Shown here in pieces: positions 49,812 to 60,939 of a DNA stretch of 64,000 nucleotides. Where the stretch lies: the NCBI GenBank assembly GCA_038255145.1, contig JBBSLP010000001.1:3682-67681 (forward strand), written 5' to 3'. How positions within the stretch are numbered: the stretch's first letter is position 1; each line of letters opens with the position of its first letter. Both the position numbers and the translations under genes were made by a program. Source of the stretch: Acidimicrobiales bacterium (lineage in GTDB: Bacteria; Actinomycetota; Acidimicrobiia; Acidimicrobiales; CAIXPF01). Below the pieces are notes generated by a model. The model ran no database searches. It was not told the DNA's origin and saw nothing but the letters and a program-made list of their open reading frames with translations.

Positions 49812-50210
49812 TCAGACGGGAGGACGGCCGTCGAGCCAGGAGACGTGGGCGTCGACCACCTGCCAGCCCCGCTCCGTCCGCCCCCAGGTCTGCGTCTGGC
49901 GACCCACCACCCCGGGGTGGCCATCGGGCAGGAACTCCACGGTGACCACGGCGACATCACATCCGAAGGTGGTCACCACCCGGTGGCGCAGCCGGCGGGG
50001 CAGGGTCTGGAAGGCCAGGGCGGCGCGGTGGGCCCGGATGGCCTCGATCCCCTGTTGGCGACCCTCGGGTCCGAAGCGCACCACCAGGGGGCTGTCCCAG
50101 AACAGGGCATCCAGGGTCTCGAGGTCGTTGGCCACCAGTGCGGCCTCGTAGCGGTCGAAGACCTCGACCACCTCGGCCACCACGTCGGGCAGGTCCACCT
50201 CACCGAGCAT
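49812..50210 (-). CDS. AtzH-like / HpxZ-like NTF2-fold protein (DUF3225)
   Basis: From the internal ATG: MLGEVDLPDVVAEVVEVFDRYEAALVANDLETLDALFWDSPLVVRFGPEG...GRQTQTWGRTERGWQVVDAHVS matches the family pattern as I remember it. Confidence 0.65.
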   Translation of the reverse strand: MLGEVDLPDVVAEVVEVFDRYEAALVANDLETLDALFWDSPLVVRFGPEGRQQGIEAIRAHRAALAFQTLPRRLRHRVVTTFGCDVAVVTVEFLPDGHPGVVGRQTQTWGRTERGWQVVDAHVSWLDGRPPV

Positions 50211-50354
50211 GGCGGCAGCGTAGTTAGGCGCTCCCACCCCGCCCCGATAGCGCGGTGTCCGTATCATTGAGTGGTCGTTGACACACTTAGAGAGAGATTC
50301 GGTAGTCTTTTGACCAGCACGTCGACAGGACGTGTCCGCATCTCCGGAGGCTCC

Positions 50355-53300
50355 ATGCTCAGGCGGCAACTCATCGGAGCGGCGTTCACCGTTGCGCTCG
50401 TCGTGTCCGGCCTCGTGTCGACGGCCACACCCGGCGGGGCCACGGACCTGACGCCCGTGGTACCGGCCCGCCTGTTCGACTCCCGCCCCGGCGCCGGCAC
50501 CGTGGACGGCCAGGGCCTGCCCGCCAGTCCCGTCGGCCCCGGCCAGGCCGTCACCATCGCGGCCCGGGGACGGGCCGACATCCCCGCCGACGCCGGTGCC
50601 GTCATCCTGACCTTGACCACCACCAACGTCAGCACCTGGACCTACCTCACCGTGTGGGACGGCGCCACGGCCAGGCCCTACGCCTCCCAGGCCGTGCCCA
50701 CCGCCGGCACCACCCAGGCCACCACCGCCATCACCCAGCTGGCCAGCGACGGCACCTTCGCCGTCTACAACGCCGCGGGCACCACCGACCTCGTCATCGA
50801 CGTCGTCTCCTGGCTCCCCACCACCAGCCCCGACATCGTCTCCATCGCTCCCGCCCGCCTCCTCGACACCCGCCCCGGCGCCATCACCGTCGACGGCCAG
50901 GGATCACCCGCCACCCCGGTGGCCGAGGCCCAGACCATGACCATCCCCGCGGCGGGCCGGGGTGGGGTCCCGGCGGGGGCCACGGCCATGTTGGCCACGG
51001 TGACCGTGCTCGACGCCTCGGCCAGCGGCTTCGTCACCCTGTGGGACGGCATCCTGCCCCGGCCCGGCGCCTCGACCGCCAACCCCACCCCGGGCACCGT
51101 GGCCACGACCATGGCCGTCATCGGCCTGAACCCCAGTGGCAACTTCGCCGTGTACAACGGGCTGGGCACGGTCGACGTCATCGTCGACGTCTTCGGCTAC
51201 CTCCCCCTCACCCCCGGCCTCGTCCCCGTGGCCCCGGCCCGCCTCCTCGACACGAGGCCCGGCGCCTGGACCATCGACGGCCAGGGCCTGCCCGGTGCCC
51301 CGGTCGGACCCACCGGCGCCGTGGCCGTGCAGGCCACCGGCCGCGGCGGCGTGCCCCCCGTCGCCGGCACGGTCATGGTCACCCTCACCTCGACCGCAGC
51401 CACCGAACCCACCTACCTGACGGCGTGGAACGGCGTCGGCGCCCACCCCTACGCCTCGGTCGCCAACCCCACCCCGGGCCAGACCTCGGCCACCACCATC
51501 GTCGTCGAGCTCGACGAGCAGGGGGCGTTCAGCGTCTTCAACCAGGCGGGCAGCACCGATGTCATCGTGGACGTCGTCGCCTGGTCCATGCCCCCCGGCC
51601 CCCAGTACGACGACCTCGACAGCAGCGGTCTACCCGTCGTCGGTCCGGCCAGTGCAGGCGACGGTCCCTTCACCGTGGTGCTGGGCCTCACCTCGGACCA
51701 GGCCGGCCTCACCGCCTTCGCCCAGGCCGTCAGCGATCCGACCTCCCCCATCTACGGCCAGTACCTCACCCTCGACCAGGCCATCGCCACCTACGGTGCG
51801 TCGGGCTCCACCGGCGCGGCCGTGGCCAGCTACTTCGGCGGCCTCAGCGTCACCCCCACCTTCGACCCCACCGGCACCACGGCCACGGTCGAGCTCACCC
51901 TGGCCCAGCTGAGCACCGTGTTCGGCACCACGTTCAGCAACTACCAGGTCAGCCAGGTCGGCTGTCAGTTCGCCCAGATGTTCCCCGACCAGGCTCCGAC
52001 GCTGCCCGCGGGGTTGAGCGGCGCCGTCGACCGGGTCCACGGCCTGGCTCCCCTCACCGACAACATCGGCCCGTGCGCGGCGCTGGACATCACCTCGGCC
52101 GGCCTCGCCACCAGCACCGCGGCCGCCGTGAACGGTGACCCGACGCTGTCGGCCCAGACCATCGCCACCCAGACCGCCTTCGGTGGCACCACCACCCGGA
52201 CCGGCGACGTCGAAGCCGGCCCGGCGACGGGGTTGTCCAGCCCGACGGCGCCGTGCCCCGATGCTGTGGCCGTCGAGGCCGACGGCACCCCCATGGGTCT
52301 GATGCCCAACCAGATGCTCGACGCCTACGGCCTCGACACCCTGCACAAGGGGGGCATCACCGGTGCCGGCATCCGCCTGGCCGTGGTCAACACCGCTCCG
52401 GCCATCGACTCGGACCTGGCCACCTTCCGCGCCTGCTTCGGGCTCCAGGGCTCCACCGAGCCCAACGTCATCCCGGTCCCGACGGGCGGTCCCCTGCCCG
52501 CCCCCGACGACGAGCCCACCCTCGACCTCAGCATCCTGGCCTTCGCCGCTCCCGACCTCGCGCACCTCGACCAGTACGTGGTGACACCGGATCCCGACGA
52601 CAACGGCGTGACCATGCTGCGCCTGGTCCAGGCGCCACTGGACACGTCCCAGACCGCCCACGTGGGGCAGGCCCCCCACGTGGTGTCCATCAGCTACGGG
52701 GCCTGTGAGTCACTGACGCTGGGCGGCCTGGGCGGGGCCTGGCCGCTGGTCGACATGATCGACCAGACGTTGGCCATCGGTGCCGCCGCCGGCATCACCT
52801 ACGTCGCCTCGGCCGGCGACAGCGGCTCGTTGGCCTGCTCCCGCCTGGTGGATGCCTTCCCCTACCCCGCCGACGTGCTGACCCCGACGCCGGCCATGCC
52901 GTCGACCCAGACGTGGATCACCTCGGTGGGCGGTACCAACATCACCCTCGATGCCGACAACGAGATCGCCTCGTCCGGTGTGTGGAACGACATGGCCTGG
53001 CCCACGCCCATGAACACCGCGGCCGGCGGCGGCGGGCAGAGCGCCATGGTCCCCCGGCCCTGGTACCAGCAGGGTGGTGCCTTCCCCGTGGGCGGAGGAC
53101 GTCTCACCCCCGACATCAGCGCCTTCTCCGACCCCCTCCCCGGTTACGTCATCTACTGCACGGTGCCGGGGACCAGGGCATGCAACGGCGCCGGCTGGCA
53201 GAACGTCGCCGGCACCAGTGCCGCCGCCTCCCTGGTGGCCAGTGGGCTGGCCCTCGTCGACCAGTCGCGCCTGAACGAGTCCCTGCCCGCCCTGGGCTTC

Positions 53301-53531
53301 GCGAACCCGCTGCTCTACTCAGTGGCCCAGGGCCCGTCGGGTCCCATCGTGGACGTGACCCTGGGGACCAACGACCTCGAGGTCAACCGGGGCCTTTACA
53401 CGGCGGGAGCAGGCTACGACCTGGCCAGCGGGTGGGGCTGGCCCAGCTTCGAGATCCTGACCAGCACCGTGGCCGACCCGTGCGCCCGCTACTACGCCAC
53501 CGTGGCCGAACCCGTCACCGCCGCCTGCTAG
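50355..53531 (+). CDS. Secreted S53 (sedolisin/kumamolisin-type) peptidase with three N-terminal copies of an uncharacterised repeat module
   Basis: RBS GGAGG, ATG 50355 and a signal peptide. Then three modules of about 129 aa, a pro-kumamolisin-like activation region (FAQAVSDPTSPIYGQYLT), and the catalytic domain (DEPTLDLSI, SAGDSGS, VAGTSAAASLV). Confidence 0.85.
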   Translation: MLRRQLIGAAFTVALVVSGLVSTATPGGATDLTPVVPARLFDSRPGAGTVDGQGLPASPVGPGQAVTIAARGRADIPADAGAVILTLTTTNVSTWTYLTVWDGATARPYASQAVPTAGTTQATTAITQLASDGTFAVYNAAGTTDLVIDVVSWLPTTSPDIVSIAPARLLDTRPGAITVDGQGSPATPVAEAQTMTIPAAGRGGVPAGATAMLATVTVLDASASGFVTLWDGILPRPGASTANPTPGTVATTMAVIGLNPSGNFAVYNGLGTVDVIVDVFGYLPLTPGLVPVAPARLLDTRPGAWTIDGQGLPGAPVGPTGAVAVQATGRGGVPPVAGTVMVTLTSTAATEPTYLTAWNGVGAHPYASVANPTPGQTSATTIVVELDEQGAFSVFNQAGSTDVIVDVVAWSMPPGPQYDDLDSSGLPVVGPASAGDGPFTVVLGLTSDQAGLTAFAQAVSDPTSPIYGQYLTLDQAIATYGASGSTGAAVASYFGGLSVTPTFDPTGTTATVELTLAQLSTVFGTTFSNYQVSQVGCQFAQMFPDQAPTLPAGLSGAVDRVHGLAPLTDNIGPCAALDITSAGLATSTAAAVNGDPTLSAQTIATQTAFGGTTTRTGDVEAGPATGLSSPTAPCPDAVAVEADGTPMGLMPNQMLDAYGLDTLHKGGITGAGIRLAVVNTAPAIDSDLATFRACFGLQGSTEPNVIPVPTGGPLPAPDDEPTLDLSILAFAAPDLAHLDQYVVTPDPDDNGVTMLRLVQAPLDTSQTAHVGQAPHVVSISYGACESLTLGGLGGAWPLVDMIDQTLAIGAAAGITYVASAGDSGSLACSRLVDAFPYPADVLTPTPAMPSTQTWITSVGGTNITLDADNEIASSGVWNDMAWPTPMNTAAGGGGQSAMVPRPWYQQGGAFPVGGGRLTPDISAFSDPLPGYVIYCTVPGTRACNGAGWQNVAGTSAAASLVASGLALVDQSRLNESLPALGFANPLLYSVAQGPSGPIVDVTLGTNDLEVNRGLYTAGAGYDLASGWGWPSFEILTSTVADPCARYYATVAEPVTAAC
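50445..51602 (+). repeat. Three tandem protein-level repeat modules (50445-50831, 50832-51218, 51219-51602)
   Basis: Each module begins xPARL[LF]D[TS]RPG and ends [TV]D[LV][IV][IV]DV[VF][SGA][WY]. Internal conserved pieces include TVDGQG and a hydrophobic [FY]xV[YF]N segment (FAVYN, FAVYN, FSVFN). Confidence 0.85.
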
Positions 53532-53885: not shown

Positions 53886-54044
53886 AGCCCGCGCCGGCGC
53901 TGTGAGCCCAGCGCGGGTCTGTGCCGTTGGTGTCGCCCTGGCGTTCATGCATCACGAAGTGGCCCGTCAAGCCGGCGGGTCCGGTGACCGATAGAGGGGG
54001 CGGGTTGATCGTTCTGGCCCCACCACCGCTTGGACGGAGTGAAG

Positions 54045-55430
54045 ATGATGAAGTCGATCGACACCGCACAGCCGAGTGAGCTGCACGTGGCGCGTGGGTC
54101 GTTCCGGCGTACGTTGCAGGCTCTAGCGCTTGTGGTGTTCATGGTCGCCCCGGTCGCCGCCTTCGCATCTTTCTGGCTGGCCGATCACCTTGTGACGTCG
54201 GTGTCCGCCCAGTGGGCCGTCGGCACAGGCCTGGTCGCGGTGCTGAACCTACCGATCATCGTGGTCGTCCTCGGCGTCATCGCCAAACGGGTCGCGACGG
54301 CCGACGCCTGGGCCGACGCCCAGCAGACGCGGCTCGACGAGGAGCGGAGCCATCGCGACCTGGAGTCGCAGGTCACGGATGCGTTGGAGATGGCTGAGAC
54401 CGAAACGGAGGCGCTGCGGGTGATCGAGCGCGGCTTCTCGGTGGTCCTGCCCGACTCCATGACCGAGTTGTTGTTGGCGGACAACAGCCATGCGCGCCTG
54501 TCTCGCAAGGCGGTGTCGGCCCCCGCCGGCAGCGTCGCCGGATGTGGGGTGGGTTCGCCCCAGGAGTGCCCGGCAGCGCGACGGGCACGGGTGCACCGCT
54601 TCGCGGACAGCGACGCGGTCAATGCATGCCCGAAGCTGGCTGGTCGGGTCACTGGCCGCTGCGCCGCCATCTGCATCCCTGTCTCGGTGATGGGCCGCAC
54701 GGTCGGAGTCATCCACACGGTGCACGAGGTCGACACCCAGGTCGACGGCGGCGTCGTGCAGGACCTGGAAGCGATCGCGCAGCAGGCGGGGGCTCGCCTG
54801 GGGATGTTGCGCATCGTCGCGGAGACCCAGCTTCAGGCGGCCACGGATGCCTTGACGGGGTTGATGAACCGGCGCTCCTTCGAGAACGCCTTCCTCCAGA
54901 TGCGCGAGCGCTCGCCCGGTGGGAGCGGGGTGGTCGTCATGGCCGACCTCGACCACTTCAAGGCCATCAACGACACCTTCGGACACGAGACAGGGGACCG
55001 AGCACTACGCCTTTTCGCCGAGACGTTGCGCAAGACGGTGGGCCCCAACGATCTGGTCTCTCGGCGTGGCGGCGAGGAGTTCGCCGTCTTCTTCCCGAGC
55101 TGCGACCAAGATCGGGCGACGGAGACGCTCGGTCGGGTGCGAGAGAACCTGCAACGGGCGATCAAGGAGGCAGGCCTGCCCGCCTTCACGTCGAGCTTCG
55201 GCTCCACGCCGGCGCTCCTCGTCGAAGACCTCGACCTGCTCCTGGCTCGGGCCGACTCGGCGTTGTTCGAGGCCAAGCGCAGCGGCCGAGATCGCCTCGT
55301 CGTCGTTGTCGCCGAAGCGGCTACCGACGATTCCGCAGCACCCGCCAACCGTGTGCTCGACGGCCCGAATGGCGCGGCCGACGGCGTGGTGGTCGTCCTG
55401 CGCCAGGCCGTCGAAACAGCCACTCGTTGA
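54045..55430 (+). CDS. Membrane-anchored GAF-like/GGDEF diguanylate cyclase
   Basis: RBS GGAG, ATG 54045, two TM helices, a Cys-rich GAF-like region, and a GGDEF domain with an intact RGGEEF motif and DHFKAINDTFGH. No RxxD I-site seen upstream of GGEEF. Confidence 0.85.
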   Translation: MMKSIDTAQPSELHVARGSFRRTLQALALVVFMVAPVAAFASFWLADHLVTSVSAQWAVGTGLVAVLNLPIIVVVLGVIAKRVATADAWADAQQTRLDEERSHRDLESQVTDALEMAETETEALRVIERGFSVVLPDSMTELLLADNSHARLSRKAVSAPAGSVAGCGVGSPQECPAARRARVHRFADSDAVNACPKLAGRVTGRCAAICIPVSVMGRTVGVIHTVHEVDTQVDGGVVQDLEAIAQQAGARLGMLRIVAETQLQAATDALTGLMNRRSFENAFLQMRERSPGGSGVVVMADLDHFKAINDTFGHETGDRALRLFAETLRKTVGPNDLVSRRGGEEFAVFFPSCDQDRATETLGRVRENLQRAIKEAGLPAFTSSFGSTPALLVEDLDLLLARADSALFEAKRSGRDRLVVVVAEAATDDSAAPANRVLDGPNGAADGVVVVLRQAVETATR

Positions 55431-58572: not shown

Positions 58573-60939
58573 ATGAAGCCTGCTGGTCGGAAGAGGATCG
58601 TCGCCGCCGCGCTGGCCGCGTTGGCGGGCGCCGCCGCGCTGGGCCTGCCCGCGTTGAGCGCCAAGGCCGCAGCCGGTGACCCGTGGTGGGCCGGCGGGGG
58701 TGCCTTCCGCGCCCCAATCACCGTGACCTTCCCGGGCACGTCGGGCCAGGCCGTCCCCGTGGAGACCACGGTGGACTTCAACAGCCTGCTCACCGCGGCC
58801 GGCGGGACGGGCACCGTCGACACCGCCACCGTGCGGGTCGTCGAGGTCAGCGGGAACAACCCCACCGGGCCTTCACTGCCCGTCCAGGTCGACGACGACA
58901 ACGGGACCAAGAAGCTCGTCTTCCTGGCCCCGGCCACCTCGGCTGGCGCCCATCGCTACGACGTGTACTTCGACAAGGCCGGCGCCTCGGTGCCAACCCA
59001 GAGCGCGGCCACCCCCATCACCCTGTCCAGCGCGGACGACGCCGGCCAGGACTCCTACAAGATCGCCACCACGGCCGGCACCTGGTACTTCCAGAAGCAG
59101 GGCGGCGCCTTCTCCAGCTTCGACGACGCCTCGGGCGCCGACTGGATCGGCTACGAGAACAACGCCAGCTCCAACCGCCGCTTCCGGGGCACCCCCAACC
59201 TGAACGACGACTGGTACCACCCCGGTGGCACCCAGGCCACCACCACCCTGCTGAGCTCGGGTCCGGTCAAGGTCGTGATCAAGGCCGATGGTGGTGGCAA
59301 CAGCACCATCCACGAGATCTACCCCGGCTTCGTGCGCTCGACCCTCACCGCGGCCCCCGTCCCCTACTGGTGGCTCTATGAGGGCACCCCGGGTGGTGGC
59401 ATCGTCGGTGGCGAGTCCGTGCTCAAGCCCTCGGGCGGCACCGTGGCCACCTTGCCCCTGTCGGCCAACGTCGAGGGCGACATCTCGTCCCTGGGCGACG
59501 CCGGCGCCGCCGAGTGGATCGCCTTCACCAACGGCACCGGTGCCACTGTCGGACGGTCGATCTTCTTCGCCCACCAGGACGAAGACAACCCGACGGACGG
59601 CTCCCTGGCCGCCGGCGCCGGCGCCGACTCGATGGCCGTGTTCGGCTTCGGCCGCTCCCCGGCGGCGGACTACCCCCAGCTGAGCGGCAACAACACGTTC
59701 ACCATGGGCCTGGTCGACACCAAGGACGGCGGCGTCGTGCGCAACGCGGTCATCGGGGCCACGGCTGCTCCCGCGGTCTTCGTGGGTGCCGCTGAGGCCG
59801 GTACCGCCGGTGGTGGTGGCTCGACGACGACCACCGCTCCTCCCGTGAGCACGGGCACCGGGGCCAAGTACACGGCGGTGACGCCGTCCCGGGTGCTCGA
59901 CACCCGCAGCGGCAACAAGCTCGGGCCGCTGGAGCCGGTGCGGGTCGTCGTGCGGGGTGTGGCCGACGTGCCTGCCTCGGCCACCTCCATCGTGCTCAAC
60001 GCCACCGTCGTCGAGCCCACCCAGCCCACGTTCGTGGCCGTGTACCCGTCCGACATCGGCTTCCCCGGCATCTCCAACCTCAACTCCGAGGTCAACGACA
60101 CGGTGCCCAACCTGGTCACCTCCCCCATCGGCATCGACGGTGGCGTGTTCGTGCTCAACGGTGCCGGCACCGCCCACGTGCTCCTCGACGTGGTCGGCTA
60201 CTACGCCCCCACCGCCGCGGTGCCCACGGGCGGCGGCTTGCACGCCATGAGCCCGGTCCGCTGGGCGGACACCCGGGCCGGCGCCCCCCTGGGCGCAGGT
60301 GAGGCCCGCACGTTCAGCTTCGCCGGCGTGCCCGGCGTCGTGGCCGGCAAGCTGAAGGCGGTGGCCCTCAACGTCACCTCGACGGGCTCGACCACCGGCG
60401 GCTACCTCACCGTCTACCCCGCGGGTGCGGCCCGGCCGTTGGCCTCCAACCTGAACTTCACCGCCCAGCAGACGGTGCCCAACGCCGTGATCACCGGGGT
60501 CGACGGTGCCGGCAACGCCGTCGTCTACAACCCCCAGGGCAGCACCGACGTCATCCTCGACGTGGTCGGCTGGTACGACGACGGCACCGTGGACACGGGC
60601 CTCGGCTACCACGAGGTCGCCCCCACCCGGGTGCTCGACACCCGAAGCGGGGCCCCCATCGGGGAGGGCGCCGAGCGGGTGTGGGCCCGCACGGCTCCCA
60701 TCCCGGCGTCGGCCAAGGCCGTGGCCGTCAACGCCACCGTCACCCAGGCCACCGGCCTCGGCTACTTCAGCGTGTTCCCCGGCGCCCCCCGACCCGGGGT
60801 GTCGACCCAGAACACGTCGCCGGGCCTGACCCGGGCCAACCACGTGCTCACCGCCCTGGGCGGATGGGGCCAGCTCACGGCGTACAACAGCACCGGCACC
60901 GCCCACCTGGTCTACGACGTCTTCGGCTACTTCGACTGA
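58573..60939 (+). CDS. Secreted protein: unknown beta-rich N-terminal region plus three C-terminal copies of the same repeat module as the S53 peptidase
   Basis: Signal peptide MKPAGRKRIVAAALAALAGAAALGLPALSAKA. N-terminal DPWWAGGGAFRAPITVTF... Gly/Thr linker. Then modules starting TPSRVLDTRSG, SPVRWADTRAG and APTRVLDTRSG. The track start is GTG 58567. Confidence 0.8.
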   Translation: MKPAGRKRIVAAALAALAGAAALGLPALSAKAAAGDPWWAGGGAFRAPITVTFPGTSGQAVPVETTVDFNSLLTAAGGTGTVDTATVRVVEVSGNNPTGPSLPVQVDDDNGTKKLVFLAPATSAGAHRYDVYFDKAGASVPTQSAATPITLSSADDAGQDSYKIATTAGTWYFQKQGGAFSSFDDASGADWIGYENNASSNRRFRGTPNLNDDWYHPGGTQATTTLLSSGPVKVVIKADGGGNSTIHEIYPGFVRSTLTAAPVPYWWLYEGTPGGGIVGGESVLKPSGGTVATLPLSANVEGDISSLGDAGAAEWIAFTNGTGATVGRSIFFAHQDEDNPTDGSLAAGAGADSMAVFGFGRSPAADYPQLSGNNTFTMGLVDTKDGGVVRNAVIGATAAPAVFVGAAEAGTAGGGGSTTTTAPPVSTGTGAKYTAVTPSRVLDTRSGNKLGPLEPVRVVVRGVADVPASATSIVLNATVVEPTQPTFVAVYPSDIGFPGISNLNSEVNDTVPNLVTSPIGIDGGVFVLNGAGTAHVLLDVVGYYAPTAAVPTGGGLHAMSPVRWADTRAGAPLGAGEARTFSFAGVPGVVAGKLKAVALNVTSTGSTTGGYLTVYPAGAARPLASNLNFTAQQTVPNAVITGVDGAGNAVVYNPQGSTDVILDVVGWYDDGTVDTGLGYHEVAPTRVLDTRSGAPIGEGAERVWARTAPIPASAKAVAVNATVTQATGLGYFSVFPGAPRPGVSTQNTSPGLTRANHVLTALGGWGQLTAYNSTGTAHLVYDVFGYFD
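59869..60936 (+). repeat. Three tandem protein-level repeat modules (about 59869-60237, 60238-60603, 60604-60936)
   Basis: Modules end LLDVVGYYA, ILDVVGWYD and VYDVFGYFD. Internal [IV]xLN[AV]T and NL[ND] pieces appear in two of the three modules (IVLNAT/ALNVT and ISNLNSE/SNLNFT); the third reads VAVNAT and has no NL[ND] piece. Confidence 0.8.

Follow-up and report, generated by a model that had tools for sequence, protein, structure and literature searches.

In a 64,000-nucleotide stretch of DNA from an Acidimicrobiales bacterium (contig JBBSLP010000001.1, positions 3,682 to 67,681; this whole stretch is called the window below), two secreted proteins, an S53 peptidase (protein A) and a second protein (protein B), each carry three copies of a repeat that the original prediction, made from the letters of the DNA, could assign to no named domain family. 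The locus raises the question of what this repeat is, why it comes in threes, and what it might do for proteins as different as these two. Our results indicate that the six repeats are very probably two copies of one single-chain, ring-closed pseudo-trimer of C1q/TNF-like beta-sandwiches, which is what is new here; both the fold class and the principle of a terminal module made of three repeats were known before.

Six repeats in two secreted proteins

A hidden Markov model (HMM) of the family was trained on 618 repeats from other organisms; the window's own protein was left out. The repeats and the evidence for each are as follows.

50448-50819, + strand: repeat A1, from HMM matches and alignment
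50838-51206, + strand: repeat A2, from HMM matches and the AlphaFold 2 (AF2) model of a single repeat
51222-51587, + strand: repeat A3, from HMM matches
59869-60204, + strand: repeat B1, from HMM matches
60238-60576, + strand: repeat B2, from HMM matches
60607-60936, + strand: repeat B3, from HMM matches

In a six-frame scan the HMM recovered exactly these six copies, with independent E-values of 2.5e-26 to 1.8e-38, and no seventh copy was found in the six frames of the whole 64 kb window. Because a model built without the window recovers exactly these six, a chance origin is excluded. The places at which the copies had first been noted, in two secreted proteins, were thus confirmed on the + strand by both the HMM and the alignment. 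The six copies align over 110-124 amino acids (aa) with pairwise identities of 28-55% and 13 invariant columns. The repeat nature of the sequence therefore stood, but its length had been overestimated at 115-129 aa. The motifs by which the repeat had been recognized, i.e., PxRxLDTRxG, a hydrophobic-Thr strand and DVxG[YW], proved in the alignment to be true conserved blocks.

The triple as the unit

An exhaustive HMMER scan of 1.84 billion cluster representatives (clustered at 50% identity) found 35,234 carriers at E<=0.001 and 25,487 at E<=1e-10. Among the best 150 representatives, 135 had three copies, five had six and one had nine, and proteins with four or five copies were either cut by contig ends or contained a gap wide enough for a diverged copy. 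Two further searches yielded three copies in 111 of 112 and in 103 of 108 proteins. High total scores favor multi-copy proteins, so arrays were also counted in 80 loci chosen by a single-repeat pattern. In this sample, three copies were present in 61 of 71 intact arrays, and two more arrays were three copies split by a frameshift. Overall, about 90% of the proteins had three copies and the remainder mostly six or nine. What had been described as six separate modules is instead two copies of one three-repeat folding unit.

Several carriers with other copy numbers were also observed. Genuine single-copy forms were found on otherwise unrelated secreted proteins (L066, 2779-3783; L039, 1788-3077), and L055 (469-858) has a single permuted copy, in which the first strand has moved behind the body; all three may be homotrimeric, ancestral-type versions. 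The permuted carrier L031 (2938-4245) has two bodies and two trailing first strands, with identical flanks on both bodies, and could be a real two-copy form or have arisen when near-identical repeats collapsed during the assembly of a metagenome-assembled genome (MAG). Finally, seven proteins of about 716-770 aa (P0127, P0129, P0394, P0406, P0408, P0409 and P0417) contain a canonical triple, a gap of about 90 aa and two low-scoring copies; judged by these traces, this subfamily probably has a second, strongly diverged triple and hence six repeats in all.

Probable ring closure of the triple

Evidence that the two ends of the triple meet came from the position of the first strand (strand A), which bears the motif P-x-R-x-x-[DE]-[TS]-R and was counted in 339 three-copy proteins. 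This motif stood ahead of repeat 1, with none after repeat 3, in 297 of the 339 proteins. In 35 others it was absent before repeat 1 and present after repeat 3, at the usual linker length, and the mature N-terminus of these permuted proteins begins in the next loop, directly after the signal peptide. No protein had the motif at both ends (0/339), and seven variants had it at neither. Both classes are accordingly read from their motifs as having three first strands for three bodies (297 + 35 of 339). In at least one of the classes, a strand from one end must complete the body at the other, which argues for a closed ring whose two ends meet. Beta-propellers offer a precedent: in their Velcro arrangement the ring is closed by a strand from the other terminus, and circular permutants occur.

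The equivalence of the three positions was seen in repeat identities. Between proteins, identity was flat at 0.48-0.49 in all nine cells of the 3x3 position matrix, and within proteins it was 0.63. The flat matrix indicates that the three positions have equivalent environments and evolve in concert. Furthermore, in three proteins N56 of repeat 3 and N93 of repeat 1 were replaced together, as S/Q, T/D and S/T. These proteins share 40-48% identity in the triple, the two columns are otherwise 97-99% Asn, and the co-substitution would be expected by chance with p <1e-3, a rough estimate from the observed single frequencies. The pattern points to contacts between two Asn at every interface between repeats, including that of repeat 3 with repeat 1.

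The window contains a related case. In the N56 and N93 columns, all three copies of protein A have Thr in place of the family's Asn, and in column 72 they have Asp/Asp/Asn versus a Pro that is 95% conserved in the family, while the copies of protein B are canonical at columns 56, 93 and 72. As far as the alignment can tell, this suggests a coordinated switch across all three A repeats, either through co-evolving interfaces or through concerted evolution.

Structure models and their neighbors

AF2 modeled the triple at 50445-51602 (386 residues, from an 81-sequence alignment) with a predicted local distance difference test score (pLDDT) of 93.2 and a predicted template modeling score (pTM) of 0.90, and we read the latter as predicting a fixed mutual arrangement of the repeats, not flexible beads. 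The model of a single repeat (A2) reached a pLDDT of 95.9 and was all-beta with seven strands by DSSP, in agreement with the beta-sandwich that had been proposed from the sequence pattern.

The Foldseek neighbors of the single repeat in the PDB were almost all beta-sandwiches that work as trimers. The best solved match was the Bd2133 fiber tip (8ok3/8ond; TMq 0.52-0.57), and other matches were the C1q head 1pk6, C1QTNF5 (4nn0), BclA (1wck), F-BclA (9h38), the trimeric phage cement protein of KHP40 and the lectin BC2L-C-Nt (2wq4). The C1q/TNF-like heads were matched with a probability of 0.9-1.0 and template modeling (TM) scores of 0.42-0.55. Matches to CBM22, CBM4 and a pectate-lyase carbohydrate-binding module (CBM) were weak (TM 0.38-0.45, E>0.02). 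When the whole triple was compared with the PDB, only local matches were obtained, CBMs among them, and the "triple jelly roll" of STIV A55 scored TM 0.21-0.23. In BFVD, giant-virus and phage proteins of about 370-425 aa matched the whole triple along their entire length with TM 0.41-0.49 (A0A3G5A5N8 and A0A3G5A5X5 from Hyperionvirus, A0A3G4ZPZ6 from Terrestrivirus and A0A6J5LW36, a phage "C1q domain-containing protein"). On the strength of these models, viruses, too, may encode single-chain triple C1q-like proteins.

The likeness to C1q/TNF-like heads would lie in a beta-sandwich of about 120-140 aa, three of which would stand around one axis and serve as terminal recognition heads of extracellular proteins, typically with ligand sites at the protomer interfaces. 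Those heads are homo- or heterotrimers assembled from separate chains, whereas the module has its three copies in one chain, joined by linkers of about 6-10 residues; moreover, the classical fold has ten strands and the modeled repeat seven, with modest TM scores and no profile relationship. In the Bd2133 sandwich, three protomers assemble around a central strand; ions lie on the threefold axis, a binding pocket is formed where the protomers meet, and the authors call the fold previously uncharacterized and without PDB homologues (PMC10769870). Bd2133 differs from the module in being a homotrimer at the tip of an adhesive beta-helical fiber in a predatory proteobacterium, and its sequence identity to the repeat is 9-11%. 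Viral single-chain jelly rolls (STIV A55, 4ind/3j31; the double jelly roll of PM2 P2) resemble the module in that fused jelly rolls mimic an oligomer, and proteins of this kind were among the Foldseek matches of the triple. They are capsid or turret proteins, in contrast to a module on secreted bacterial enzymes, and the arrangement differs, as the low TM score of the STIV protein shows.

Altogether, the models indicate a module that works like a fused C1q/TNF-type trimer. We do not file it as a member of that family because no sequence profile links the two. A closed pseudo-trimer of C1q/TNF-like beta-sandwiches is highly probable, with an exact threefold geometry that we infer.

A large family without annotation

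Neither Pfam nor NCBIfam contains a model that matches the repeat region of protein A or B, and the six copies had no match at E<=10 apart from AMIN-like, which was the sole Pfam match and concerned one copy (E 0.12). Profiles for C1q, TNF and BclA_C matched neither the complete proteins (E<=1) nor any of the six copies (E<=10), no CBM family of Pfam matched in the proteins or the copies, and the CWB2 (PF04122) and SLH (PF00395) profiles found nothing in the repeats. A sequence-profile search of the PDB with the repeats returned 0 matches at E<=10. Thus, with the HMM and database searches completed, the absence of a named family was borne out, and a clean mapping onto a characterized family did not appear. 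In source records, RefSeq included, the carriers appear as "hypothetical protein" or under the name of some other domain.

Two precomputed labels were considered and rejected. DUF6383 (PF19910) is a marginal partial match of 25-35 aa around the threshold (profile positions 3-39 of 74) that covers the last strands in some homologues only, and the window copies do not match it. The PF27111 label ("Rv1352") belongs to a C-terminal partner domain (PGTY...GCYWER, two copies) and not to the module. Judged by the scan, the module is one of the larger unmodeled domain families of the soil Gram-positive lineages.

Distribution, position and passengers

Carriers were mostly Actinomycetota (Acidimicrobiia, Streptomyces, Kitasatospora, Streptacidiphilus, Pseudonocardiaceae and Phycicoccus), with further ones in Dormibacterota, in soil MAGs labeled "Chloroflexi" and in a few Rudaea (Gammaproteobacteria). 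Carriers outside the monoderm soil lineages were L034, L036 and L080 (Rudaea), L018 (a Micrarchaeaceae MAG) and L016 (an Acidobacteriota MAG); a Rudaea protein of 869 aa has a canonical C-terminal triple. These outliers suggest horizontal transfer or, for the MAGs, mis-binning, and they bear on whether the ligand is a Gram-positive wall polymer.

The triple was N-terminal in 90 proteins, C-terminal in 79, internal in 6 and alone in 7, and the portability and terminal placement that had been proposed from two proteins therefore hold across the family. Signal-like N-termini were present in 157 of 219 carriers; LPXTG was found in 0 of 262, and a lipobox-like sequence in four. The commonest passenger was CAP in two of the passenger surveys. 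Cell-wall enzymes (YkuD+PG_binding_1, M23+fn3, Amidase_2), proteases (S8, S53, M4, M10, reprolysin) and glycoside hydrolases (GH12, GH18, GH114) were found alongside HtaA, Excalibur and Rv1352-like domains, propellers of the RCC1, Kelch, PQQ and TolB types, and structural-type passengers, i.e., beta-helices, leucine-rich repeats (LRR), cadherin-like, Calx-beta and RHS domains. Two other sedolisin-type carriers (P0445 and P0479) have a C-terminal triple, so the order of parts in protein A is unusual. What we observed throughout is a portable, exported and probably closed three-repeat unit, with its six copies in the window, its family and its rules of copy number and permutation.

A possible tethering head

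In the mechanism that we propose, three C1q/TNF-like subdomains of jelly-roll type would come together as a closed ring with pseudo-threefold symmetry, a "single-chain trimer" that occurs in nature. Its closure would be Velcro-like, as either end of the triple can contribute the first strand (PxRxLDTR). Exported via a signal peptide and fused N- or C-terminally to diverse passengers, the unit would bind multivalently, through three equivalent sites or faces, and so hold its passenger on a polymeric surface. The target would be a glycopolymer of the producer's own envelope, slightly favored over an external glycan. In sedolisins, the N-terminal prodomain is removed autocatalytically. The triple of protein A, which lies upstream of the prodomain, should for this reason leave with it: it would tether the zymogen and be shed on activation, whereas the triple of protein B would stay on the mature protein.

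A binding head is what we infer from the close structural neighbors, all of which are recognition heads. Tethering is preferred over a substrate-specific role because the passengers are too diverse for the latter, and it is further suggested by the lack of covalent anchors in the carriers and by a pattern that mirrors SLH and CWB2. These domains of Firmicutes are wall anchors in triplicate, found at either terminus of secreted proteins with similar passengers (PMC4973711). The module has the same layout: three repeats in tandem sit at one end of a secreted protein, N- or C-terminal, and the passengers vary. In both cases three repeats act as one unit, which is probably pseudo-trimeric in the module as well, without a covalent anchor, and the similar passengers are peptidoglycan hydrolases, transpeptidases, proteases and adhesins. 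There is no relation between the folds (helical in SLH, alpha/beta in CWB2, a beta-sandwich in the module), CWB2 repeats are position-specific and not interchangeable whereas the three positions of the module are equivalent, and wall-polymer binding is proven for SLH and CWB2 but proposed for the module by analogy only.

As a whole, a ring-closed triple that serves as a portable tethering head is the best explanation and a reasonably probable one. Its parts differ in strength. A binding or tethering role is slightly favored over none, the producer's own envelope is a tentative choice of target, and it is rather doubtful that the triple is the Actinomycetota/Dormibacterota counterpart of SLH/CWB2, i.e., a phylum-wide non-covalent anchor on a specific envelope glycopolymer.

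The reading next in probability to ours is that of a substrate-targeting lectin or CBM, in which the pseudo-trimer binds external plant, fungal or foreign bacterial glycans and concentrates hydrolases on their substrate with no retention at the wall. The structural neighbors include BC2L-C-Nt, CBM22, CBM4 and the pectate-lyase CBM, the passengers include GH12, GH18, GH114, M23, amidase and many proteases, and the TNF-like fiber tips of Bdellovibrio bind N-acetylglucosamine at protomer interfaces (PMC10769870). An external glycan is nearly as likely a target as the own envelope, because the module is absent from phages (their endolysins included) and present in a diderm, and because passengers of the GH12 type occur. 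It is, on the other hand, difficult to see how one ligand could serve so wide a range of unrelated enzymes, the carriers cluster in a small number of phyla, and the many non-enzymatic propeller, LRR and cadherin-like passengers need no external target. Nor do the YkuD L,D-transpeptidase and HtaA haem-uptake passengers, which act on the own envelope and for this reason tilt the balance toward self-retention. We consider the lectin or CBM reading unlikely as a full account.

A ring without a ligand of its own, serving as a stable, protease-resistant unit for folding, solubility or spacing (and, in the single-copy forms, as a trimerization device), appears improbable. The most invariant residues behave like interface residues, single-copy forms exist and would trimerize their passenger, and BclA-type heads serve chiefly as trimerization nuclei. 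A single-chain trimer, however, no longer oligomerizes anything, selection for an inert and always terminal appendage of about 360 aa on thousands of unrelated secreted proteins is hard to explain, and every close structural neighbor is a recognition head. Still less credible, and in our judgment very improbable, are independent tandem Ig-like or CBM-like beads on a string, each folding and acting alone. Such beads would fit the confident model of a single repeat and the few proteins with one or two copies, but not the copy number of 3, 6 or 9 in about 90%, the one-strand circular permutation without a single "both" case, the pTM of the triple or the joint substitution of positions in repeats 3 and 1.

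Several points weigh against the tethering head itself. The similarity to C1q/TNF-like heads is moderate only (TM 0.45-0.57) and has no sequence profile link, a literature search on the motifs and on single-chain C1q/TNF-like bacterial modules found nothing relevant, and one or two copies, rather than three, are seen in a minority of proteins. The near-invariant polar residues (Asn, Arg and Asp) may mark an interface rather than a ligand site, and the mature enzyme of protein A would lose the module. With respect to the own wall as the target, no module was found by tblastn in 50,697 phage genomes, the diderm Rudaea carries the module, and GH12-type passengers fit substrate targeting equally well.

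The carrier genes and their neighborhood

The two carrier genes and the parts of protein A other than the repeats are as follows.

50355-53531, + strand: gene of protein A, 1058 aa, from the list of open reading frames (ORFs), the product on record, Pfam PF09286 and PF00082, and the TPP1 match
50355-50441, + strand: predicted signal peptide of protein A, MLRRQLIGAAFTVALVVSGLVSTATPGGA, read from the translation, with the cleavage site estimated by eye
51672-52046, + strand: Pro-kumamolisin activation (pro)domain of protein A, aa 440-564, PF09286 (Pro-kuma_activ), E 3.3e-15
52275-53492, + strand: S53 (sedolisin) catalytic domain of protein A, about aa 641-1046, phmmer against human TPP1 (3ee6), E 2e-19
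58573-60939, + strand: gene of protein B, 788 aa, from the ORF list; its product is on record as P0125

The G+C content of the window is 72%, which is of the actinobacterial type. Both gene products are on record, starting exactly as given here, and each forms a singleton cluster. Protein A consists of a signal peptide, the three-repeat module, the sedolisin prodomain and the S53 catalytic domain. In the alignment to tripeptidyl-peptidase 1 (3ee6), E...D, SGDSG and GTSAAA are kept, and a Peptidase_S8 clan match (PF00082) was also found in the catalytic region. With the prodomain present together with the Glu/Asp, the oxyanion Asp and the GTSxxxP serine of the catalytic domain, the C-terminal part is assigned to the S53 sedolisins, and the placement of three copies ahead of an S53 peptidase, as first described, was upheld by PF09286 and the TPP1 alignment. 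No full-length orthologue of protein A was found; all matches span the triple only. The signal peptide of protein A starts with MLRRQLIGAAF, in which RRxLI is a motif like that of twin-arginine translocation (Tat) signals, and that of protein B has no such motif. If the RRxLI motif is real, the pre-folded ring of protein A might leave by Tat.

Protein B consists of a signal peptide, a domain of about 370 aa, a Gly/Thr/Pro linker and the three-repeat module, which runs to the stop codon. The secreted domain lies at 58669-59790 (aa ~33-406) and the linker to the triple at 59791-59868. The N-terminal part (first ~430 residues) had no relative in Pfam, NCBIfam or PDB sequences, and the N-terminal domain had no homologue among 490 other triple carriers.

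The genes between and beside those of proteins A and B encode a GntR/FCD regulator and AtzH-like, GGDEF, P450, methyltransferase-like and transglutaminase-like proteins. An operon link between the two carrier genes was rejected, as the intervening and flanking genes are unrelated. The divergent AtzH-like ORF (49812-50369, - strand), taken as the longest ORF, overlaps the first 15 nucleotides of the gene of protein A. Its Pfam match begins only at aa 57, and its true start is therefore probably further downstream, which would make the overlap a likely artifact of ORF calling. A GGDEF diguanylate cyclase at 54030-55430, between the two carriers, has a membrane-spanning N-terminus and about 270 residues without a Pfam match before its catalytic domain.

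Significance

Secreted actinobacterial proteins with this stretch of about 360 residues number in the tens of thousands, and the stretch goes without annotation. Once the triple is treated as one closed unit, the domains of a new family model can be delimited correctly. The triple would also be one of the few cases in nature in which a trimer is fused into a single chain and circular permutants occur, and it offers display or engineering a small scaffold with three faces that is probably very stable. To our knowledge, soil actinobacteria lack SLH and CWB2, and the triple offers a testable hypothesis for how these organisms keep enzymes at a surface. If it were indeed their counterpart of SLH and CWB2, it would define an extensive "surfaceome", hidden until now, that comprises thousands of enzymes and adhesins and, in cases like protein A, a tethered zymogen that is freed on activation.

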